This document shows positions 12,118 through 25,506 of a stretch of DNA of 31,278 nucleotides, one piece after another; the first letter of the stretch is position 1, and each line of letters starts with the position of its first letter. A model generated the notes under the pieces. The model was given only the letters and a program-made list of their open reading frames with translations. It was not told the origin of the DNA and searched no databases. This DNA is from a virus: the IMG/VR virus record IMGVR_UViG_3300045988_019785, positions 1 to 31,278 of that record, one strand, 5' to 3'. Both the position numbers and the translations under genes were made by a program.

Positions 12118-12377
12118 AGTGCGTCTCCAATCGAGTCGATCTCGTCCATAAGGTTGTCTAGTTCACAGTAGTAGCAGTATGCGGCCAGGTAATCAGGCAG
12201 GTCCACACCGTCCCAAGTGACCTTACCTTCAGCAGCGTGGTCAATGTCAATCTTGAGGTTGACGAGGATGCCTTCCTGTAGGTCCTCACCGTACACGTTG
12301 AGTACGTGGTCGTGTAGCTCAGCAAGGTCGATGCCGTGCTCGGCTACGTACTCAGGGTCTCTCTTGAATCCTAGCAT
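12111..12377 (-). CDS. Hypothetical protein (88 aa, acidic)
   Basis: ORF in the co-directional early operon, overlapping both neighbours. No motif recognised. Confidence 0.6.
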   Translation of the reverse strand: MLGFKRDPEYVAEHGIDLAELHDHVLNVYGEDLQEGILVNLKIDIDHAAEGKVTWDGVDLPDYLAAYCYYCELDNLMDEIDSIGDALW

Positions 12378-12826
12378 TGGGTTGCCTCCATGTCGTCTAG
12401 CAGGTATACCAGCGGTGAGCGTTCAACTCCTGGTATAGCCCTCAGTTTTGTGATTGTCTCTTTCAGGCTCAGGTCTGTAGGGATCGCCCTGAACGCCTCT
12501 AATTCTAGCACAGTTTCGCAGTGAGTGTCTAGTACCCACTCAGCTCTGAGCATGAGGGCTGATACGGGGTCAGTGAGCAGGTCCCCTACAAGACTGTCGT
12601 CGATGCCCTCACCCATGTGGTCGTACAGCTCTTCACCGCACGGTAGGTACCTGTCTGCGGCCTTCTGGCAGTACTGTACTGCCCAGTAGCGAGGGCATAC
12701 CCACAGCTCCCACTCCCACATGAAGTCGTCTATCAGCTCATCATAGCCCCACTCGGTCAGCTTGTCGAGGACCTTAAGGTGCCCTGGTGTGGCTGATACT
12801 TTACGAAGCTCATCAATAGTGTACAT
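12371..12826 (-). CDS. Hypothetical protein (151 aa)
   Basis: ORF in the early operon. Trp/Cys-rich N-terminal half. No motif recognised. Confidence 0.6.
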   Translation of the reverse strand: MYTIDELRKVSATPGHLKVLDKLTEWGYDELIDDFMWEWELWVCPRYWAVQYCQKAADRYLPCGEELYDHMGEGIDDSLVGDLLTDPVSALMLRAEWVLDTHCETVLELEAFRAIPTDLSLKETITKLRAIPGVERSPLVYLLDDMEATQC

Positions 12827-17251: not shown

Positions 17252-18973
17252 CTATACGTCAATCTCGGGCCCCCAGCAAGTACCCACCTCTACGTCCGCT
17301 ACCAGTGGGCAGTCAAAATGGGGCAGGGGCTGCTCCATAGTGCTCTTGATCATGCTCGCTGTGGTCTCGGCTAGGTCCTCTGGCACGAGCACGAGCACAG
17401 CATCATGGATCAGGCCTAGTATATGACTATCTCCCTCTAATCTAGACCACACACGTGTGGCGGCCCTCAGCATAACGTCACTACCTGTCCCCTGCACCTG
17501 GCTATTGACAGCCTGACGCTCAGCCGCTGCTACCTCATACTCATCATCACTGTACAGGCCTGGCAGGTGACGCCTACGGCCGAACATAGTCGAGCTATAC
17601 CCCAGCTGGTGTGCCTTAGCTTTAGCCCTAGCGTGCCAAGGACGCAGTCCTGACCAGTGCCTGAAGAAGTCCTCACGGAACTGCTCAGCCTCACCCAGGG
17701 TAATGTCTGTACCGTAGCTAACTTTAGCAAACTGGACAAACGACTTAGCACTCATCCCATACAGGAAGCCGAAGTTGACAATCTTTGCTTTCCTACGGTC
17801 GAAGCTATTGTCTGGGTCGAGCCCGATAGCACGTGTGGTCTGTGAGTGGATGTCCCCGCCCTGTCTGTACAGCTCGAGCATGTTCTTGTCACGCGAGACC
17901 ACAGCGGCTACACGCAGCTCGAGCTGGCTGTAGTCAGCCTCGATGATCTTATATCCCTCAGGGGCAGCTACCAGACCCCTTATGTAGGGGTCCTTCGGAA
18001 CCTGCTGTAGGTTCACTCCGACGCCATCGCATACCTTACCTGATGACAGCCTGCCTGTCACCGTACCGTGGAGCTTAAACGAGGTATATAACCGTCCCCT
18101 TTCATCTATTTGCTCTTTATAGGGGGTAATAAACCCGTCGATATTCTTCTTTAGTCGTGACCTTTCTAATAGTGTTTTAGCAATAGGGTGATTCATATAA
18201 GCAAGCGCCTTCTTGGAAAGACTAGGAGCACCATTAGGGAATGCTTTAGTGGGCTTTCCTACCTCCTTTTTGGGAATACCCAGATAATCATACAGGAACC
18301 ACCGCTGAAAGTTAGTAGTACCCCATTTGACCTGCATACCTTCGGGTATTTCCGAAGGTATTTCTGACTGCAATTCAGCGTCTATCTTAGCCAATTCCGA
18401 GGTGTACTTACGCTCAGCTATGTCAAGCTTATCCCGGCTAATCGGAATACCGTAGTCCTCAGACTCAGCTAACATATTTATAGCCGGGACCACAACCTTC
18501 TTGAGTAGTTTCTTCTGGTTAGGGGTAAGCTTACCCCTGTTAATCCGGTATAGTTCACGTGTGGCCAGGAGGTCCTTTTTCAAGTAGGCCGCCATAGCCT
18601 CGGGATCAGAGTCATCCCACACACCGTCATAAGACCAGTCACCTCCCATAAAGTCAGACATTAGAGACTTAAGCCCAAGAGACCGGTTCTCGTCCACCAT
18701 ATGGGCACCCAGCATAGTATCCCCAGCTGCCTCGATATCGGCACCGAAACGCTTAGCATAGACTATGTCGAATTTGATGTTGTGGCCCACTACCGGTTGA
18801 AGTTTGCCACACAGTCTCCTAAGCCTGTCTTGCCATGTCTCAGGGTGCTTGGAGGCCATGTGGAAAACTCGAGGTTCATCCTCAGGCTTATCCCCGAGGA
18901 TGCCCACCATAAGCACGGCGGCGTCCTTTGCACGGGGGTTAAGTCCTGTAGTCTCTATGTCTAGAAATAGCAT
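17252..18973 (-). CDS. DNA polymerase I (family A) with a 3'-5' exonuclease domain
   Basis: Exo motifs: LDIETTG, HNIKFD, YLKKD. Pol motifs: A = ADYSQLELRV, B = RRKAKIVNFGFLYGMS, C = LIHDAVLV, plus TGRLSS. Compact at 573 aa. Confidence 0.95.
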   Translation of the reverse strand: MLFLDIETTGLNPRAKDAAVLMVGILGDKPEDEPRVFHMASKHPETWQDRLRRLCGKLQPVVGHNIKFDIVYAKRFGADIEAAGDTMLGAHMVDENRSLGLKSLMSDFMGGDWSYDGVWDDSDPEAMAAYLKKDLLATRELYRINRGKLTPNQKKLLKKVVVPAINMLAESEDYGIPISRDKLDIAERKYTSELAKIDAELQSEIPSEIPEGMQVKWGTTNFQRWFLYDYLGIPKKEVGKPTKAFPNGAPSLSKKALAYMNHPIAKTLLERSRLKKNIDGFITPYKEQIDERGRLYTSFKLHGTVTGRLSSGKVCDGVGVNLQQVPKDPYIRGLVAAPEGYKIIEADYSQLELRVAAVVSRDKNMLELYRQGGDIHSQTTRAIGLDPDNSFDRRKAKIVNFGFLYGMSAKSFVQFAKVSYGTDITLGEAEQFREDFFRHWSGLRPWHARAKAKAHQLGYSSTMFGRRRHLPGLYSDDEYEVAAAERQAVNSQVQGTGSDVMLRAATRVWSRLEGDSHILGLIHDAVLVLVPEDLAETTASMIKSTMEQPLPHFDCPLVADVEVGTCWGPEIDV

Positions 18974-19476
18974 TTCGTTAGTTCTTTAGCTAGCTTATGA
19001 GCGGTACGGACGTCTGTGGTCGACTTATACTCTACCTTGTCCTCGCCAATAGTGAAAGTCGTGGCAGTGCGGAACTTGTTTAGCTTCCAGCTAGCAGTCC
19101 TAGCACACTCAGCTACCCACGCTCGGTACCCTATGCTCAGGACAAGGAATTCGGCCCAAGAATAACCAGTGTCTGCACCGGCCCACAGCTGTTTACCCCA
19201 GTCAGAAAACAGGTCATCAAGATTGAACGCAATCACTGCAAGGTTGAACCCCTTAGCTCGAGGTACGTTAGGCTTGGCTGCCTCACGGATACCCGAACTA
19301 ATGCCCGTATAGTCGTGGATATCACCATCGACCCACGAGCGGGTCAGCACCCCATGAGAGTTGTGTGGGTCCACAATGAGCTCACTAGGTGCGTACCCCA
19401 GACCTCGTGCAAAGATAGTGGGGTCCACACCTGGGGTGGCTGCAATGACCAAGCGGTCAGACGGATTCACTAGCAT
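18961..19476 (-). CDS. Hypothetical protein (171 aa)
   Basis: ATG at 19476 preceded by AGGAGAG. Located between the SNF2 helicase and the polymerase. No motif recognised. Confidence 0.6.
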   Translation of the reverse strand: MLVNPSDRLVIAATPGVDPTIFARGLGYAPSELIVDPHNSHGVLTRSWVDGDIHDYTGISSGIREAAKPNVPRAKGFNLAVIAFNLDDLFSDWGKQLWAGADTGYSWAEFLVLSIGYRAWVAECARTASWKLNKFRTATTFTIGEDKVEYKSTTDVRTAHKLAKELTKCYF

Positions 19477-20821
19477 AAGTCTCTCCTAGAAGGTAGTTGC
19501 GTGTATTCAGCATGATCTCTTTCCTGAACTCTGTGGCTTCCTGTAGGGAGGCCCACAGGGAGTCCTCTACGGTGTCCTGAGTCACCATCACGATGACCTT
19601 TGGATCAGCCGCTAGGGCTACTCTATCAGACATCTGACGGTAGGTCAACGCCGAGGTAGGCAGCCCATACCACACCAGCACTTCGGCCTCGCGCATGTCC
19701 ACAGCAGTAGCAGCCACCTGAGGGTTGACTACCAGCACGCCGTCCTTAGAAGCTTTCCAGGCGTCCAAGACTGATGTCTTGTCCTTGACCTTACCGTCCA
19801 GCCTGTAGGTGTGGTCTAGATGTCGCTCTATTGCGGTGAGGGAGTCAAGTAGCTCACTAGCTACCACTATACGCCCCTTGTAGGCCTCCCTGAGAGCATC
19901 GAGAGCCACAAGCTTATGGCCGCTGTACACTACCCTGCCCTCACCTGTAGAAAGCCCCTCAGCTAGCCTACGGCACCTGGCGAACAGGGCCAGCACTGAG
20001 TCAGCCCCAGACTCGCCCTGAGACTCCAGGACGTCTAGCTCATCCTTCACCATAGCCTGGTATATAGCCTTACGAGGCTCCTCTAGGAATACGGGCACAA
20101 CCTCTTCATCTATAGCCTTAGTGCCGATAGCATCCTCACGACTAATACTTATGGAGTGCGCTTTAATAAGTGCCTGGTATTCATCAGTATTCCGTGGTCC
20201 AAGGTACTTAGGGAACCCCCCAAAATTAGACCATTCACCAAAATACTCCCTAAACGACTTAGCAGAGGGGAATTCTTCCCTAATAGACGGGTCAGAGAAC
20301 ACTAGCTGTGGATAAATCTCACCCACCATATTCCGCTTGCCTACAGGTGTGGCGGTAAGGCATACACGGTACCGGGCCGATTTAGCCATACCCACAATAC
20401 GCCTAGACCGTTTGCTTGCCGGCGTCTTGATAAGGTGGGATTCATCCAGCACGATAGCTGAGGCATGGTATTCGGCACCTTTAAAGAGCCCTTTAGGGTA
20501 GCCACGTGAGAACTTATCATAGTTGATTAGCACGATCTTCGGCAGTGCTGTGGCCTCATATGCCCCATCGTAGACAATATCCGCCTCAGGGCCCCAGTAG
20601 TGCTGCTGGAGCTCCCTGACCCACACGTCGATAGCGATCCTAGGGCAGACCACAACGATATACCTGACATCCCGGTTGTGCATCAGCCAGCTGAGCCAGT
20701 CGATGGTTGTCTTAGTCTTACCCGTACGTGTGTCCATGAGGAGCATGCCGTGCTCTTTTTTAGCCAGCCACTTAACCGCGGCCAGCTGATAGTCTCGAGG
20801 CTTAGTGACTGGCTCAAACAT
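19457..20821 (-). CDS. SNF2/DEAD-like superfamily 2 helicase
   Basis: RDYQLAAVKWL, motif I LLMDTRTGKT, motif II VLDESHLIK, and a C-terminal helicase domain. TAATG coupling with the thioredoxin gene. Confidence 0.85.
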   Translation of the reverse strand: MFEPVTKPRDYQLAAVKWLAKKEHGMLLMDTRTGKTKTTIDWLSWLMHNRDVRYIVVVCPRIAIDVWVRELQQHYWGPEADIVYDGAYEATALPKIVLINYDKFSRGYPKGLFKGAEYHASAIVLDESHLIKTPASKRSRRIVGMAKSARYRVCLTATPVGKRNMVGEIYPQLVFSDPSIREEFPSAKSFREYFGEWSNFGGFPKYLGPRNTDEYQALIKAHSISISREDAIGTKAIDEEVVPVFLEEPRKAIYQAMVKDELDVLESQGESGADSVLALFARCRRLAEGLSTGEGRVVYSGHKLVALDALREAYKGRIVVASELLDSLTAIERHLDHTYRLDGKVKDKTSVLDAWKASKDGVLVVNPQVAATAVDMREAEVLVWYGLPTSALTYRQMSDRVALAADPKVIVMVTQDTVEDSLWASLQEATEFRKEIMLNTRNYLLGETYASESV

Positions 20822-21081
20822 TAGTTAATTGCTCCTTCAACCATCTTCTTGTACTGGAGTGTGGTCCCAGTACCCATCCTAGCAACCTCCACACCCTCGT
20901 GCAAGGCTATCACAGTTGGGACAGACATAATATTGAATTTACGCCCTAGGTCAGGATTGACCTCAACATCAACATACTCCCAACCAAGATACGGGAACTT
21001 TTGCATAGCCCTTTCAAAATTAGCCTTAGACTGTGGGCACTGTGAGCACCACGAAGCACCAATGAACAATAACTTCAACAT
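20821..21081 (-). CDS. Thioredoxin-fold redox protein (CxxC)
   Basis: 86 aa. Active site WCSQCP, with a cis-Pro motif (SVPT) at the expected spacing. TAATG coupling on both sides. Confidence 0.8.
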   Translation of the reverse strand: MLKLLFIGASWCSQCPQSKANFERAMQKFPYLGWEYVDVEVNPDLGRKFNIMSVPTVIALHEGVEVARMGTGTTLQYKKMVEGAIN

Positions 21082-21917
21082 TAAACTACTACCACCTTTG
21101 TTGAATAGATAGGCGCCTTATAATTGACCGCCTTAAAACCTTTACCTTTGAACTCTAGCACACCTTGCTTAGACGGTATGAACTCAACCTCCTTCTCTAC
21201 CCTAGCAGGCATCAGCATCTTATGCCAAACATCAAGATTCTGGCAATATACATGTGCATTTGCGGTAGTGAACCTCAGTTGACCCGGGGTCACACCGTGG
21301 CCATGCTGCCTCAGTGTATTAGTCATCAGGTGAATGAGCATCCACCCCTCGAGAGTATCGTATGGCAGACCGCACACAACGTCTGTGGACCTGGCAAAGA
21401 TGTCTAGGCTGACTCTCCCTCCTACTACATTGAATGCCCACGCCACAGGACACGGTGGGATACGCATAGCCCCGACCTCATACCCCTGCCATGCAGTCCA
21501 CACAGCTCGTTTGGTCGTAGGGTTAGCCACAAGCCTGTCCACGACATCGCGTACGGCATCGTATGCCCCGTCAGGACCTCCGTAGCGCCACTGGACGCCG
21601 TACATAGGCCCTAGCTCATCTGTGGCCCACGGAGACCACATACGCTCCACATCGGGGGTGATTCTAGCACACCTGTCGTGCTGTGTGGCCCCTGACCCAC
21701 TAAGCATCCAGTGGAGCTCACGCTGGGCCATGTCCACAGACACCCTACGGGTCTGGGACATGGGTGCGTGCGTGTAGACCACGCTCCATGACCCGTAGCA
21801 CCAGTAGGGGTGATCCTGGCCTTCTGTGACTAGCTCAGCAGCCTGTCTAGACAAGTGGTATATGTTCTGGTCATACTCACATAGCACGTCGGTAAGCCTC
21901 CGATACACACTTGACAA
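21081..21917 (-). CDS. Thymidylate synthase (ThyA) superfamily pyrimidine C5-(hydroxy)methylase; Asp at the Asn177 specificity position suggests a dCMP substrate
   Basis: It aligns by eye to ThyA: ELHWMLSG (ELLWFLqG), LGPMYGVQWR (LGPVYGkQWR), NPTTKRAV (DPDSRRII), IPPCPVAW (catalytic Cys, APCHAFF), ARSTDVVCGLPYD (QRSCDVFLGLPFN), ANAHVY (GDTHLY), and C-terminal KAPI plus a 9-aa extension. The start is uncertain: TTG 21917, GTG 21908 or GTG 21887. Confidence 0.85.
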   Translation of the reverse strand: MSSVYRRLTDVLCEYDQNIYHLSRQAAELVTEGQDHPYWCYGSWSVVYTHAPMSQTRRVSVDMAQRELHWMLSGSGATQHDRCARITPDVERMWSPWATDELGPMYGVQWRYGGPDGAYDAVRDVVDRLVANPTTKRAVWTAWQGYEVGAMRIPPCPVAWAFNVVGGRVSLDIFARSTDVVCGLPYDTLEGWMLIHLMTNTLRQHGHGVTPGQLRFTTANAHVYCQNLDVWHKMLMPARVEKEVEFIPSKQGVLEFKGKGFKAVNYKAPIYSTKVVVV

Positions 21918-22635
21918 TTACGTAACCCGGTTCCATAACCCATGAGCTACCATGTTTAGCCCAGTAGGTAAAGTCTTTAACCGCTTTATTGAAATTCTTA
22001 GCCAGGGTGTAATTAGTCACCCCATAAGAGACATCTGGACTTACATTATAGCCCATTCCGAGGTACTTATGGAAGGTCTCAAGAATAAACATACAGGCCT
22101 TTTTAGTAAGGTCCCTAAACCTTATGTCACCCCAGTTAAGGGTCTCCATGCATTGTGGATACCAGTCACCGAAATTAAGGTCATTAGACCACCGAGCGCC
22201 GTCATCTTTTAGAGACCTAATTACGACCACACCTGCATTCTTCAGTACGGTTATGCCCTGTTTGTGGTCTCGCCAATTAGGTTTTTTCAAGGCTGGGTCA
22301 AGCCATGGCCTATCATACTCCAGATATCCCCTAAACCCAGCCAGAAGCAACGCCCTAGCACAAGGAGCACAGGGCTCATATGTCATGGCTATGTGGCCCT
22401 CGCGCAGCTCGTAGGGAAGACTCATAAGTTCTTGTGAGGCCCACACCTCCGCATGAATGTACTCGAGACACTGGCCGTTAGGTGCAATGTCGTGAAGTTT
22501 AGGGCCAAGCTCCACATTATGGGTGGCTATGCTACGTCCTGTACGCGTGTTTTCAAAATAGCACCCAACTTTGTGGTCGGGATGAGACGACTGGCTAGCT
22601 ACTTCGTATGCTTTCTCAATGTTACTCAGCATCAT
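21877..22635 (-). CDS. Zinc-dependent cytidine/deoxycytidylate-type deaminase with an unknown C-terminal domain of about 110 aa
   Basis: The HAE (YIHAEVWA) and PCxxC (YEPCAPCARALL) motifs are about 26 residues apart, which is the CDA-fold signature. Residues from about 140 to 252 have no recognisable motif. Confidence 0.85.
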   Translation of the reverse strand: MMLSNIEKAYEVASQSSHPDHKVGCYFENTRTGRSIATHNVELGPKLHDIAPNGQCLEYIHAEVWASQELMSLPYELREGHIAMTYEPCAPCARALLLAGFRGYLEYDRPWLDPALKKPNWRDHKQGITVLKNAGVVVIRSLKDDGARWSNDLNFGDWYPQCMETLNWGDIRFRDLTKKACMFILETFHKYLGMGYNVSPDVSYGVTNYTLAKNFNKAVKDFTYWAKHGSSWVMEPGYVIVKCVSEAYRRAM

Positions 22636-22915
22636 AGCTCCTTACAATAACCCGATCGAACTGTGGGAAAGTCTTCAGAATAGCTTCACAAGTGATGCAA
22701 ACATGGTTAATTATGTACGCAATGCCCGGGCGTGACCCCCCAACCTCATTTAGCAGCCTCATTACTGGGTGGATGTAAGCCCCTCCTGGCTTAGGGTAGT
22801 ACTTACCCGGCACCCACCAGATACCGTCTGGGCTAGAGAAGACCACAGACGACATACAGCCTCGCTCAGGTTTGATGCTCTGGATCATCCGAGGAATATC
22901 CTTGAACTCGTACAT
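22622..22915 (-). CDS. Small deaminase-fold paralogue lacking the catalytic Glu (HPV ... CxxC), putative non-catalytic partner
   Basis: 97 aa: SSVVFSSPDGIWWVPGKYY...AYIHPVMRLLNEVGG...IAYIINHVCITCEAILKTFPQFDRVIVRSYD follows the CDA-fold pattern. His and two Cys zinc ligands are retained, but Val replaces the Glu of HAE. Confidence 0.45.
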   Translation of the reverse strand: MYEFKDIPRMIQSIKPERGCMSSVVFSSPDGIWWVPGKYYPKPGGAYIHPVMRLLNEVGGSRPGIAYIINHVCITCEAILKTFPQFDRVIVRSYDAE

Positions 22916-23204: not shown

Positions 23205-23603
23205 TCAGTTATTTTCAGCAAGCCACTCAGCACCAATCTCGACCAGCTGGTCATAGGTCAGCGTGTAGTCCTCGTCGACCAGGTCGATGAGGTAGCTGAT
23301 GAGGGCCCACACAGGGGTGTCCTCAATGACCTCAGCGGTCTCAGGCAGGACCAGAACCTCACCGAACTCCTCGTCGAGGGGGGTGTCCTCTGACTGAGGG
23401 CCCTCCACACGCACCAGCACAGGGTCAGTGGCGTCTACTGCGTGTGTGGCCCAGTACGCTGCCAGCTCCGCGATGGTCTCACAGCCACTCACACCATGCC
23501 TGACCTTCGACTCGTCGTAGTCCATGGGCCAGCTGTACTGGGTCTCAGGGTCGAGCAGGTACTCAGTACCGCGGTGCTTGTCCTGGATCCTGAAGGCGAT
23601 CAT
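23205..23603 (-). CDS. Highly acidic early protein (132 aa), function unknown
   Basis: About 30 of 132 residues are Asp/Glu and there are few basic residues. It has its own promoter and RBS (GAAAGGA). No motif recognised. Confidence 0.65.
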   Translation of the reverse strand: MIAFRIQDKHRGTEYLLDPETQYSWPMDYDESKVRHGVSGCETIAELAAYWATHAVDATDPVLVRVEGPQSEDTPLDEEFGEVLVLPETAEVIEDTPVWALISYLIDLVDEDYTLTYDQLVEIGAEWLAENN

Positions 23604-23764: not shown

Positions 23765-23777
23765 TAGGCCGTAAATC
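23765..23777. repeat. 13-bp perfect inverted repeat, left copy (TAGGCCGTAAATC), partner at 24080-24092
   Basis: The reverse complement of 23765-23777 equals 24080-24092. The pair brackets the zinc-ribbon gene and its promoter, a 328-bp unit. Confidence 0.8.
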
Positions 23778-24027
23778 AGCGTTGCGTCCAGCTCTCAGGG
23801 ATACTCCTGGCCTTGCTCCAGACACCCTCACGCTGTGCCATGCCCTTAGCCTCCAGCTCAGCTGGGGTCAGGCACCTACGTCGGTCCGGCCCCTCAGTCA
23901 CCCCGTGCAGGCTCGTACGATGCATGTCTCCCGCAGTGGTACCCCCGAACGTCTCGTGGCACACGGGGCAGTGCTCGTAGCTGCGTTTGATGATGTTCTT
24001 CTTGCAGTTTCTGCATGTCCAAGTCAT
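23776..24027 (-). CDS. Zinc-ribbon protein (FDxHR-family-like putative zinc-binding protein)
   Basis: MTWTCRNCKKNIIKRSYEHCPVCHETFGGTTAGDMHRT...RRCLTPAELEAKGM shows CxxC...CxxCH...(F)DxHR...C..P, as in the actinophage FDxHR family. ATG 24027 is preferred. The ORF-track TTG 24063 is actually the -35 box TTGACG. Confidence 0.6.
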   Translation of the reverse strand: MTWTCRNCKKNIIKRSYEHCPVCHETFGGTTAGDMHRTSLHGVTEGPDRRRCLTPAELEAKGMAQREGVWSKARSIPESWTQR

Positions 24028-24034
24028 GTGACCT

Positions 24035-24063
24035 ACCTTAGCACGGGCTAGAGACCCCGTCAA
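24035..24063 (-). promoter_or_regulatory. Sigma70-type promoter (minus strand): TTGACG-17 bp-TAAGGT, start codon 7 nt downstream (leaderless mRNA)
   Basis: -35 TTGACG (24063-24058), 17-bp spacer, -10 TAAGGT (24040-24035), then 7 nt (aggtcac) to ATG 24027. There is no room for an RBS. Confidence 0.7.
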
Positions 24064-24079
24064 GAGTTAACTTATCAGA

Positions 24080-24092
24080 GATTTACGGCCTA
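24080..24092. repeat. 13-bp perfect inverted repeat, right copy (GATTTACGGCCTA)
   Basis: See 23765-23777. It lies 17 bp upstream of the -35 box of promoter 24035-24063. Confidence 0.8.
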
Positions 24093-24176
24093 ACAGGCCC
24101 TGACCCTACCTAGGATACCCCCCGTCCCTTTTGAGGCCGTTTAGGGCGCCTCAGGCAGGGTCAGGATCAATCTAGG

Positions 24177-24557
24177 TCAGGACCACCAACCAGAGCGCGT
24201 CAGCAGGTCCTCCACCCACTCGCGATCGAACCTGCCCTCACGCACCCGGTAGCACACGCGGGCCAGCGCAGCCAGCGGGTGGGACTTGTGGCTGTAGGCC
24301 CACCTCGGGACGCGGGACCAGGCTGCCTTGGCCCCTACGGTGTGGCGCTTGATCATCGTGCCGCAGATGGCGTGGACAGCTAGCGTGAATGTCCAGGAGG
24401 TCAGGGCCACACCTGCCAGGGCGTGTAGGGCATCCTCGAGTGCAGCGATGTTGTCGGTCTGGATGGCGGCCATGAAGTCACCGGCCAGGACGCGCTCATA
24501 GCCGGTCTCCCTCGTGGTCGCGTTGATGGTTGCAAGGATCTCTCGTCTCGTGATCAT
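24177..24557 (-). CDS. Hypothetical early protein (126 aa), first gene of the early arm
   Basis: The ORF starts 6 nt downstream of a consensus -10 box. The gene looks GC-rich compared with the rest of the genome. No motif recognised. Confidence 0.6.
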   Translation of the reverse strand: MITRREILATINATTRETGYERVLAGDFMAAIQTDNIAALEDALHALAGVALTSWTFTLAVHAICGTMIKRHTVGAKAAWSRVPRWAYSHKSHPLAALARVCYRVREGRFDREWVEDLLTRSGWWS

Positions 24558-24563
24558 GGACCC

Positions 24564-24592
24564 ACCCTAGCACGGGACCACACACCGGACAA
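24564..24592 (-). promoter_or_regulatory. Sigma70-type promoter (minus strand): TTGTCC-17 bp-TAGGGT, start codon 6 nt downstream (leaderless mRNA)
   Basis: -35 TTGTCC (24592-24587), 17-bp spacer containing GTGTGGTC (24583-24576 on the minus strand), -10 TAGGGT (24569-24564), then gggtcc and ATG 24557. It shares CCCGTGC-TA(A/G)GGT with promoter 24035-24063. Confidence 0.7.
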
Positions 24593-24608
24593 GTCCCGCC
24601 CTGTGGTT

Positions 24609-24636
24609 CCCTCCCCCCTTAACCCCCCACCCTCCC
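24609..24636 (-). repeat. G-run tract on the minus strand (C-runs on the plus strand), G-quadruplex-prone
   Basis: Plus strand ccctccccccttaaccccccaccctccc has C-runs of 3, 6, 6, 3 and 3. Confidence 0.6.
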
Positions 24637-24643
24637 GCGCGCA

Positions 24644-24682
24644 CGTAGCACGCGGGCGTAGCACGCGGGCGTAGCGCTACGC
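24644..24682. repeat. 13-bp tandem repeat (CGTAGCACGCGGG x2.6) ending in a 14-bp perfect palindrome GCGTAGCGCTACGC
   Basis: Units at 24644-24656 and 24657-24669, with a partial third unit. Palindrome at 24669-24682. Flanked by alternating (CG)n stretches (24636-24642 and 24691-24700). Confidence 0.85.
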
Positions 24683-24713
24683 GTGCATGACGCGCGCGCG
24701 TACGAGGCCGGGA

Positions 24714-24759
24714 CCCCTTCCCCGCCTTCCCCCCAAACCCCCCTATCCACCCTAACCCC
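24714..24759 (-). repeat. Second G-run tract on the minus strand, G-quadruplex-prone
   Basis: Plus strand ccccttccccgccttccccccaaacccccctatccaccctaacccc has C-runs of 4, 4, 6, 6, 3 and 4. Confidence 0.6.
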
Positions 24760-24807
24760 TGAGAGTCTCTCTCTGGCGTTTACGCCTGAGAGAGAGACTC
24801 TCAGGGG
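24756..24807. repeat. Large perfect hairpin/cruciform 1 (19-bp stem plus an apical 4-bp GGCG/CGCC mini-stem)
   Basis: 24756-24774 (cccctgagagtctctctct) pairs perfectly with 24789-24807. The apex GGCGTTTACGCC lies at 24775-24786. Confidence 0.9.
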
Positions 24808-24810
24808 GAG

Positions 24811-24868
24811 TTAGTTAGTTATATATTTCTCTCTTTAGAGGGGGTATGGGGGAGACCTTTCTCTCTTT
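24811..24868. repeat. AT-rich island (ttagttagttatatatt) plus two copies of TTTCTCTCTTT between the two big hairpins
   Basis: TTTCTCTCTTT occurs at 24826-24836 and 24858-24868. This is the only strongly AT-rich stretch in a very GC-rich region of about 1 kb, so it is a candidate DNA-unwinding element. Confidence 0.6.
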
Positions 24869-24892
24869 GTGGGCGTCCTGACCGCTCAGCGC

Positions 24893-24979
24893 CCCGCCGT
24901 GTGAGCCCTCGGTCCAGGGGGCCCCGGGGCCCCAGGCGTAAACGCCGGGCCCCGGCCCTGGACCGAGGGACACGGCGGG
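24893..24979. repeat. Large imperfect hairpin/cruciform 2 (10 + 14 + 9 bp stems plus an apical GGCG/CGCC mini-stem)
   Basis: Pairings: 24893-24902 with 24970-24979, 24906-24919 with 24956-24969, and 24924-24932 with 24947-24955. The apex GGCGTAAACGCC (24935-24946) is the reverse complement of the apex of hairpin 1. Confidence 0.85.
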
Positions 24980-25191
24980 CAGGCACACACCGGGGATTGG
25001 CTTCAGCACGTCTGGCCGATCTGAGGAGGTGTGTGGTCTAGCACTTGGGGCAGTAGAAGCCAGGATGCCTCTGAGAGCCCCAGGAAGGCGCCTAGGAGGG
25101 CCTAGCAGGGTCGGGGTGGCACTGGAGTACCCCCAGACGATTTGAGGCCGTCTGAGGCGAGATACTGAAGCTCTCAGGAGGTGTTGCAGGG

Positions 25192-25506
25192 TTGCGGGGA
25201 GTGTGCTACCATGAGGTCATGGAGTTTCCACGAGAGATTGTTAAGCGAGTTGTCGAGGTGCCGGGGTGGGATGACATACCAGCGCTACCTTGCGCACAAC
25301 GGCTGGAAGAGGCTGGCATGGTCCACGAGGACCAAAGCAAGACCACACGCCTGAGGTACCGGGCGCGGCTTGCGGACTATCCGGTGGAGTCGTATGAGGC
25401 GAGGGCGATCTCACAGGCAGTGCCGACGTACGGCACACGTGTGGTCCAGCTGGAGAGTGTGATCGAGCTTGGGGTGATCTGGGTGAAGGTGACCGTGGCA
25501 TGGTGA
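25192..25506 (+). CDS. Hypothetical protein (104 aa); start uncertain
   Basis: AGGAGG (25176-25181) lies 10 nt before TTG 25192. Alternative in-frame starts are GTG 25201 and ATG 25219. The codon pattern looks coding, but I found no promoter upstream and the region is GC-rich, where spurious ORFs are common. Confidence 0.45.
   Translation: MRGVCYHEVMEFPREIVKRVVEVPGWDDIPALPCAQRLEEAGMVHEDQSKTTRLRYRARLADYPVESYEARAISQAVPTYGTRVVQLESVIELGVIWVKVTVAW

Follow-up and report, generated by a model that had tools for sequence, protein, structure and literature searches.

A short minus-strand stretch of the uncultured virus record IMGVR_UViG_3300045988_019785 (IMG/VR), which we analysed over its positions 1 to 31,278 (31,278 nucleotides, hereafter the window), encodes in succession a small protein of 97 amino acids, a homolog of deoxycytidine monophosphate (dCMP) deaminases, a homolog of thymidylate synthase (ThyA) and a thioredoxin-like protein. 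The question raised by this locus is which pyrimidine nucleotide the encoded enzymes make, and whether it ends up as a modified base in the phage DNA. The original prediction, made from the nucleotide sequence, proposed a non-canonical pyrimidine pathway with 5-methyl- or 5-hydroxymethyl-dCMP as its product. Our analysis suggests, with a probability of roughly 0.6, that the early operon of this phage carries a minimal cytosine-replacement module of the type known from phage Xp12, a 5-methylcytosine (5mC) pathway; this reading is built on diagnostic residues and on analogy with characterised systems.

The ThyA homolog matched PF00303 (E 1.1e-31, 110.4 bits against a cut-off of 24.3, profile positions 41-256 of 266) and, in phmmer searches, 120 ThyA chains of the PDB (best E 5e-23). 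The open reading frame (ORF) originally given as 21081..21917 was correct as to gene and stop codon; its start is likely the GTG at 21887 and not the TTG at 21917, because this GTG has a GGAGG 9 nt upstream and gives a polypeptide of 268 amino acids, the same length as in all relatives. Counted from there, the numbering coincides with that of E. coli ThyA from residue 143 on (Ile143, Cys146, Pro147, Ala165, Arg166, Ser167, Asp169 and Asp177). The catalytic and binding positions of ThyA were kept (Cys146, Arg21/Arg127'/Arg166/Ser167, Glu58, Tyr94, Asp169, His207 and Tyr209), only Arg126 being replaced by Lys. Conservation was counted over 36-37 related loci from ~31-kb metagenomic phage genomes, in which all four genes were under purifying selection as judged by the ratio of nonsynonymous to synonymous substitution rates (dN/dS; 0.09 for the ThyA-like gene). 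Asp177, Cys146, Asp169, Arg21, Glu58, Tyr94, Arg166, Ser167, His207, Tyr209 and Trp80/83 were invariant in 36/36 loci.

In thymidylate synthases acting on deoxyuridine monophosphate (dUMP), Asn177, His147 and Gln165 contact O4 and N3 of the uracil. In the window protein these positions were occupied by Asp177, Pro147 (Pro in 30 loci, Thr in 6) and Ala165, and the loss of Gln165 was common to Xp12 and T4 gp42. The Asp at the position of E. coli Asn177, on which the earlier proposal had turned, was confirmed by phmmer alignment to solved ThyA structures (GLPYD against GVPFN) and by two MAFFT alignments of the window protein with E. coli ThyA, Xp12, T4 gp42 and two actinophage proteins. The third-best PDB match, 1njc, which we take to be the N229D mutant of the L. 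casei enzyme, reads GVPFD at the E. coli 177 site. The further deviations that had been listed (PCH to PCP, YQRS to FARS and GDTHLY to ANAHVY) were all seen in the alignment; the 9-residue C-terminal extension proved to be an alignment artefact, the match of KAPI to KAPV being a chance offset. The invariant Tyr256 (of 268 residues) aligned to the Tyr of the E. coli C-terminal GYDPHPGIKAPVAI, with 12 residues following it in both proteins. Scores against the NCBIfam thymidylate synthase equivalogs lay far below every cut-off (best 104.4 bits against 327; TIGR03284, 87.6 against 108.35). The strongest association with cytosine modification of viral contigs lies in the residues at 177 and 147 (PMC8670742), and mutagenesis of Asn177 to Asp (N229D in L. 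casei) shifts the preference to dCMP (cited in PMC8670742, PMC13326640).

Enzymes with an Asp at position 177 can differ in product. In the hydroxymethylases T4 gp42 and MilA an Asp or Glu, partnered by a Ser/Thr, precedes the catalytic Cys by three residues, Val replaces Trp83 and the C-terminal tail is missing (PMC6400193; PMC13326640); 5-hydroxy-dCMP synthases of the RB69 gp48 type combine D169N with an acidic residue at 143 (PMC13326640). The window protein and its relatives carried Ile (30 loci) or Leu (6 loci) at position 143, which is the position three residues before the Cys, Pro-Met before the catalytic Tyr, the Trp and Asp169 in 36/36 loci, and a full-length tail. Asp177, a non-acidic residue 143 and the retained Trp83 and tail, with which hydride transfer would be possible, point to a 5-methyl-dCMP synthase. 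In BLASTP comparisons the protein matched the experimentally verified 5-methyl-dCMP synthase of Xp12 with E 4e-19 and T4 gp42 with E 0.002. Because residue 143 is Ile or Leu and Trp83, the tail and Asp169 are all kept, a 5-methyl product is preferred over a hydroxymethyl or hydroxy product, and 5-methyl-dCMP synthase is the best-supported assignment of the ThyA homolog from its sequence. Of the earlier proposal, the C5 modification of dCMP, the possible deamination of part of the product to a thymidine nucleotide and a probably modified virion DNA agree with published systems (PMC8670742; bioRxiv 10.1101/2024.12.05.627091), and the choice between a 5-methyl and a 5-hydroxymethyl product is narrowed to the former.

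The adjoining protein of 251 amino acids matched PF00383 above the gathering score (E 1.4e-8, 35 bits against 25), and a profile search returned the S. mutans dCMP deaminase as its closest PDB sequence. Its likely start is the second ATG, at 22632, located 5 nt after AAGGAG and giving the length of 251 amino acids seen in relatives. The HAE motif was present in 37/37 loci and PCxxC in 36/37, the alignment of the remaining locus having no coverage there. An AlphaFold2 (AF2) model (predicted local distance difference test score, pLDDT, 74) had a canonical cytidine deaminase (CDA) domain in residues 1-140 and, after it, four long helices (155-169, 178-192, 208-226 and 231-251), and its top Foldseek matches were the human, S. 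mutans, T4, S-TIM5 and PBCV-1 dCMP deaminases (E 5e-6 to 1e-4, probability 1.00). This protein genuinely belongs to the dCMP-deaminase family, with an intact active site, and the earlier description of an HAE/PCxxC deaminase with an extra domain of about 110 residues devoid of recognisable motifs was accurate. For the helical domain, searches of Pfam and of PDB sequences stayed empty up to E 10; the domain evolves faster than the N-terminal domain (dN/dS 0.24 and 0.11), yet is constrained. MazG and PRA-PH enzymes are helical bundles. A fused dCTP pyrophosphatase resembling them was rejected as the identity of the domain, which lacked any such match and in which the acidic positions of EExxE/ExxD were not conserved; PRA-PH does co-occur with modules of Asp177 ThyA homologs and deaminases (bioRxiv 10.1101/2024.12.05.627091).

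The deaminase gene overlaps that of the Asp177 ThyA homolog, and so stands in cis with it as do the deaminases termed mSCD. In the study that described these, deaminases lay within 3 kb of an Asp177 ThyA homolog in 70% of cases on modified contigs and 6% on unmodified ones, 5/7 tested Asp177 ThyA homologs made 5-methyl-dCMP, and many of the linked deaminases preferred 5mC, from which the authors propose that deoxythymidine nucleotides are made from 5-methyldeoxycytidine nucleotides (bioRxiv 10.1101/2024.12.05.627091). By analogy, the module of the window might work in three steps. The ThyA homolog would bind dCMP through Asp177, as its diagnostic residues indicate, and use methylene-tetrahydrofolate as both one-carbon donor and reductant, yielding 5-methyl-dCMP and dihydrofolate. 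Host kinases would then take 5-methyl-dCMP to the triphosphate, since we found no phage enzyme for this step, and the family-A polymerase of the phage would incorporate it, giving virion DNA with 5mC for much or all of its cytosine and a blunted action of restriction enzymes. Finally, the HAE/PCxxC deaminase, if it acts like the characterised in-cis deaminases, would turn part of the 5-methyldeoxycytidine mono- or triphosphate pool into deoxythymidine nucleotides, so that one pair of enzymes could supply both 5mC and thymine in a phage lacking a dUMP-type thymidylate synthase.

The inventory of the window bears on the second of these steps. Among the about 40 ORFs scanned there was no second ThyA or ThyX and no recognisable dihydrofolate reductase (DHFR), MazG-type dCTPase, nucleotide pyrophosphohydrolase or deoxynucleoside monophosphate (dNMP) kinase, in line with the earlier statement that an Asn-type thymidylate synthase, a dCTPase and a nucleotide kinase were not seen. 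A hidden dNMP kinase was also considered and rejected, the only classical Walker A motif being that of the AAA_24 ATPase. Four early ORFs of 126-171 amino acids on the minus strand (18961-19476, 23205-23603, 24177-24557 and 12371-12826) were conserved and had no P-loop. They gave no Pfam match above threshold and, where scanned, no PHROG or NCBIfam match, 24177-24557 having a sub-threshold lysozyme match only; should the phage depend on a 5-methyl-dCMP kinase of its own or on an activity that removes dCTP, these ORFs are the sole remaining candidates.

Several points weigh against a 5mC replacement pathway in this phage. The pathway as a whole rests on diagnostic residues and analogy, and 2/7 of the tested Asp177 homologs gave no 5-methyl-dCMP (bioRxiv 10.1101/2024.12.05.627091). 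Xp12-like phages combine the pair with a DHFR and a nucleotide pyrophosphohydrolase, neither of which was found here, and since no dNMP kinase or dCTPase was recognisable either, cytosine replacement may be partial or absent. In our alignment the Xp12 5-methyl-dCMP synthase itself has Asn, and no bulky hydrophobic residue, at the equivalent of E. coli Leu143, so that the published rule by which Leu143 excludes water appears to reduce to a distinction between acidic and non-acidic residues. Divergence of the deaminase is very high: tblastn against 50,697 GenBank phage records gave no match, and its identity to the deaminase of Xp12 is only 24%. Its substrate preference is not readable from sequence; selectivity for 5mC is polyphyletic and not predictable from sequence according to the authors who described it (bioRxiv 10.1101/2024.12.05.627091). 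Lastly, CTGCAG was observed 0 times against 7.2 expected, which could mean that some restriction pressure persists. All 4-bp palindromes occurred at 0.84-1.46 of expectation over the window (1-31278) with none avoided; this is compatible with global protection and counts as weak evidence for it, site avoidance being on the whole uninformative on modification. Over the same window CpG was depleted (observed/expected 0.66) and TpG/CpA raised (1.13); candidate causes of the CpG and CTGCAG pattern are host dinucleotide bias, deamination of 5mC and PstI-type restriction pressure.

The alternative that survives best, although we regard it as unlikely, is a two-step thymidylate route in which dCMP is converted to 5-methyl-dCMP and all of this to deoxythymidine monophosphate (dTMP), the module replacing a dCMP deaminase and an ordinary thymidylate synthase and the virion DNA remaining canonical. 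It would account for a genome in which, with no dNMP kinase, dCTPase, pyrophosphohydrolase or DHFR, nothing visibly drives 5-methyldeoxycytidine into DNA or removes dCTP; the deaminase gene directly precedes and overlaps the methylase gene, and the absence of CTGCAG hints at the same persisting restriction pressure. Pairs of an Asp177 ThyA homolog and a deaminase are, however, strongly enriched on contigs that were experimentally selected as cytosine-modified, and an Asn-type ThyA would be a simpler way to the same end. Moreover, the characterised deaminase of this type needs triphosphates, which implies a pool of 5-methyl-dCTP that a polymerase can use.

A dCMP hydroxymethylase like that of T4, forming 5-hydroxymethyl-dCMP that is possibly deaminated to 5-hydroxymethyl-dUMP, appears improbable. 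Asp177 is common to T4 gp42, and some in-cis deaminases also act on 5-hydroxymethylcytosine, but the ThyA homolog has no Asp or Glu three residues before the Cys, carries Pro-Met in place of Ser/Thr by the catalytic Tyr and keeps Trp83 and the tail. Its identity to gp42 is only 21%, at the E value given above, and no glycosyltransferase or dNMP kinase was found.

Still harder to sustain is a role in ordinary nucleotide supply, with the ThyA homolog acting mainly as a dUMP thymidylate synthase despite its Asp177 and fed by a plain dCMP deaminase. The overall similarity of the protein is highest to canonical ThyA, and GenBank lists comparable proteins with Asp177 from Microbacterium and Curtobacterium phages under the name thymidylate synthase; against this stand the dCMP preference produced by the N177D (L. 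casei N229D) mutagenesis, the additional replacement of His147 and Gln165, the scores far below every NCBIfam equivalog cut-off and the invariance of the Asp in the clade. Least probable of all, we consider, is that the deaminase and the 97-residue protein act as a pair on DNA or RNA cytosines of the host or its defences rather than on free nucleotides: the best PDB matches of the 97-residue model include APOBEC3 domains, the extra helical domain is unexplained and mSCD-type enzymes also show activity on single-stranded DNA in vitro, but the APOBEC matches are poor (E 0.05-0.5, template modelling (TM) score about 0.4), the catalytic subunit matches mononucleotide dCMP deaminases best in both sequence and structure, and its gene adjoins that of a nucleotide-modifying ThyA homolog.

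The gene of the 97-residue protein is real and constrained (dN/dS 0.11), with Glu17, Cys20, His49, Pro50, Cys73 and Cys76 invariant among the related loci. Where deaminases carry the catalytic Glu after the zinc-binding His, the protein reads His-Pro-Val in 32 loci, with His-Pro-Ile in 5 others. No match was found in Pfam, PHROG, NCBIfam or the PDB, and an exhaustive profile search of 1.84 billion proteins recovered 2 representative clusters and otherwise repeat-protein noise, indicating a clade-restricted protein. In its AF2 model (pLDDT 68.7) the elements follow one another as a-b-b-a-b-a-b, as they do in the CDA core, and helix 2 has His49, helix 3 Cys73/Cys76, at its N-terminus; Foldseek ranked APOBEC, CDA and dCMP deaminases on top in the PDB and in a viral structure library, the matches being weak (E 0.03-1, TM 0.4-0.56). 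On the basis of this model a Glu-less, CDA-like zinc protein is plausible, at somewhat better than even odds, and a correct fold would make the protein non-catalytic, since the Glu is absent. It had been described as a minimal, Glu-less paralogue of the deaminase: the HPV and Cys-x-x-Cys motifs and the topology of the model fit that description, and paralogy finds no support at the sequence level, there being no detectable similarity between the two proteins. An origin by duplication of the N-terminal domain of the neighbouring deaminase was rejected at the sequence level (hhalign probability ~1%; Smith-Waterman shuffle z-score < 0).

Pairs of active and inactive CDA-fold units occur elsewhere, as in the C-terminal pseudo-domain of E. 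coli and plant cytidine deaminases and the tandem domains of CDADC1. The resemblance to ADAT2/ADAT3 (Tad2/Tad3), to which the original prediction had pointed, lies in a CDA-like unit that keeps its His/Cys/Cys ligands, has Val for Glu and stands beside an intact HAE unit. The analogy is a fair one: in ADAT3, V225 replaces the catalytic Glu and the zinc has a fourth ligand from the protein, a part that the invariant Cys20 could play in the modelled 97-residue protein. There is no detectable sequence homology to the eukaryotic pair, and the phage protein is far smaller, would be a separate polypeptide and owes its fold assignment to a model of pLDDT 69. A speculative view of the 97-residue protein and the helical C-terminal domain is that they most likely serve the deaminase as non-catalytic partners or as regulatory elements. 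A more specific proposal, which we put forward as doubtful, is a hitherto undescribed two-component deaminase made up of a CDA with a clade-specific helical domain and a separate Glu-less mini-CDA subunit with a possibly four-ligand zinc site, the latter acting as a partner that tunes the diversion of 5-methyldeoxycytidine to thymidine. If true, a 31-kb phage would replace cytosine with two catalytic enzymes plus the kinases and DHFR of its host, the smallest such pathway known.

The thioredoxin-like protein, earlier recognised as a CxxC thioredoxin at 20821..21081, indeed matched PF00085 above the gathering score (E 3.1e-7, 30.8 bits against 23.5) and also PF13192, and both WCxQCP and the cis-Pro motif VPT were invariant in 36/36 loci (dN/dS 0.15). 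Its score fell below the TIGR01068 equivalog cut-off, and we therefore call it thioredoxin-like and not a TrxA orthologue, although its fold is truly that of a redox-active type of thioredoxin. Only adjacency connects it with the pyrimidine pathway to which it had been assigned, in a genome where all early genes adjoin, so its membership of that pathway is not established; it may be a general redox helper, for example in host ribonucleotide reduction. The idea of a cluster of four translationally coupled genes fared similarly. The four consecutive minus-strand ORFs (97-residue protein, deaminase, ThyA homolog and thioredoxin-like protein) do each overlap their neighbour at the coordinates predicted, and 1-nt stop/start overlaps (TGATG/TAATG) continue to the gene of a 68-residue membrane protein upstream and to the SNF2 helicase gene downstream. 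As the overlaps reach the flanking genes on both sides, coupling is a trait of the whole operon and does not delimit a four-gene unit. Coordinates of the features are collected in Table 1.

Table 1. Features of the predicted 5-methyl-dCMP module and its neighbours, in window coordinates (SD, Shine-Dalgarno sequence)
Feature	Coordinates	Strand	Basis or remark
ThyA-family enzyme, predicted 5-methyl-dCMP synthase (dCMP C5-methyltransferase), 268 aa	21081..21887	-	PF00303, alignments, start/SD
ThyA-like protein, key codons	Asp177 = 21357-21359; Cys146 = 21450-21452; Pro147 = 21447-21449	-	Residue-to-codon map
ThyA-like protein, further codons	Ile143 = 21459-21461; Asp169 = 21381-21383	-	Residue-to-codon map
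Deaminase, N-terminal catalytic CDA/dCMP-deaminase domain, residues 1-144 of 251 aa	22201..22632	-	PF00383
Deaminase motifs	HAE = 22447-22455; PCxxC = 22360-22374	-	
Deaminase, C-terminal ~107-aa predicted four-helix bundle, stop codon included	21877..22200	-	AF2 model
97-aa clade-restricted protein, candidate Glu-less zinc-binding deaminase-like fold	22622..22915	-	3' end overlaps deaminase start
86-aa thioredoxin-fold protein, WCxQCP and cis-Pro	20821..21081	-	PF00085

The window is an essentially complete genome of ~31 kb, judged to be near whole because related contigs measure 30-32 kb, and belongs to an uncultured, siphovirus-like phage. The replication proteins of this phage show a distant relationship to their counterparts in actinobacteriophages, the polymerase having 38% identity with Gordonia phage polymerases. 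The plus strand encodes HNH, TerS, TerL, portal, prohead protease, capsid, tail tube, tape-measure and GH16-domain proteins, and the minus strand a primase-helicase, Hjc, AAA_24, PD-(D/E)XK, a family-A DNA polymerase and an SNF2 helicase; the module sits within this long leftward early operon. Upstream in the same operon, 23776-24063 (-) encodes a 95-residue protein with the phage FDXHR zinc-binding domain (PF24071, E 5e-12; phrog_7707). In the bin 24001-25000, where the leftward operon has its upstream end and the rightward HNH and terminase genes start close by, G+C rises to 64%, and a terminator-like hairpin lies at 24796-24812 (+); the region around 24000-25200 is likely a divergent control region or the genome end. 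Scans of the module region for Rfam families, tRNAs, promoters and terminators gave nothing above chance.

The clade is populous, with genomes of 30-32 kb across many metagenomes (L012-L041 from IMG/VR; L001-L005 and L010) and an identical gene order around the module, and it counts dozens of near-complete members among the contigs of public metagenomes and IMG/VR. Megablast of the 4.7-kb region against GenBank phages gave no match, as did tblastn with the deaminase, so that no cultured relative is at hand for comparison, and relatives of the deaminase were absent from the 185,579 species-representative genomes scanned. Several IMG/VR identifiers of the clade (7000000xxx) resemble those of Human Microbiome Project samples, which suggests a human-associated actinobacterial host. 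One contig (L010, ena:ERZ1740170 NODE_60) measured 62,721 bp, very nearly double the unit genome length, and in the 20 kb surrounding its module only the usual phage genes were seen. A host-integrated copy was rejected on account of these phage-only flanks and the doubled length, and the contig is probably a head-to-tail concatemer or an assembly duplication.

Comparison with known systems places the locus closest to the modules of Xp12 and Pamexvirus. In Xp12, 5mC fully replaces cytosine and a ThyA homolog with Asp177 and Pro147 is adjacent to genes for a dCMP deaminase and DHFR, to which relatives add a nucleotide pyrophosphohydrolase. The phage of the window shares with Xp12 an adjacent, co-oriented pair of ThyA homolog and PF00383 deaminase, both Asp177 and Pro147, and 31% identity of the ThyA homologs over the catalytic core. 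It differs in that the deaminase gene comes first, reversing the gene order, in lacking a detectable DHFR or pyrophosphohydrolase, in having Ile or Leu where Xp12 has Asn at position 143, in the extra ~107-residue helical domain of a deaminase that is 24% identical, and in the added genes for the 97-residue and thioredoxin-like proteins; its genome is half the size and its replication proteins resemble those of actinobacteriophages. The 5mC-selective deaminases of the mSCD-B5 type (MetaGPA) are likewise PF00383 proteins encoded within 3 kb of a PF00303 protein with Asp177, and the PBCV-1, S-TIM5 and T4 dCMP deaminases are structural neighbours in both cases, whereas mSCD-B5 is a single domain of 154 residues, in contrast to the 251 residues, helical C-terminal domain and separately encoded Glu-less partner candidate found here. 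With T4 gp42 the ThyA homolog has in common the fold, the catalytic Cys, the Asp at the specificity site and a residue other than His after the Cys (Thr in gp42), and it lacks the acidic residue three positions before the Cys, Ser94, the Val for Trp83 and the truncated C-terminus of that enzyme.

Among GenBank phages, the proteins closest to the ThyA homolog, at 28-30% identity, were gp59 of Microbacterium phage Armstrong (L009:2875-3789) and gp69 of Curtobacterium phage Teagster (L008:2857-3732). Both are annotated as thymidylate synthase yet have Asp177 (GVPFD), Met147 and Ile or Leu at 143; Armstrong has a DHFR gene nearby, and no deaminase is annotated in the ~3-kb flanks of either gene. 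Judged by these residues, the two cultured actinophages may also make 5-methyl-dCMP, a subject on which our literature search surfaced nothing for either phage.

Taken with Xp12, the MetaGPA study of 2021 (PMC8670742) and the 2024 deaminase preprint, the pathway proposed in the original prediction is essentially one already published, and the conceptual gain is modest since its logic was known. If the 5mC reading is true, an abundant uncultured clade of ~31-kb phages would swap cytosine for 5mC with no DHFR, pyrophosphatase or kinase of its own, which would set a lower bound on the number of genes needed for base replacement and show that the Xp12-type strategy reaches beyond proteobacterial phages to ones whose replication genes are actinophage-like. 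Deaminases selective for 5mC are of practical interest for direct methylome sequencing, and the present one is very divergent from those characterised; its extra domain and possible inactive partner could reveal new regulation of such enzymes. Set beside these systems, the module is a new, minimal and divergent example of the 5-methylcytosine modules of the Xp12/MetaGPA type, a kind of pathway that is already known.

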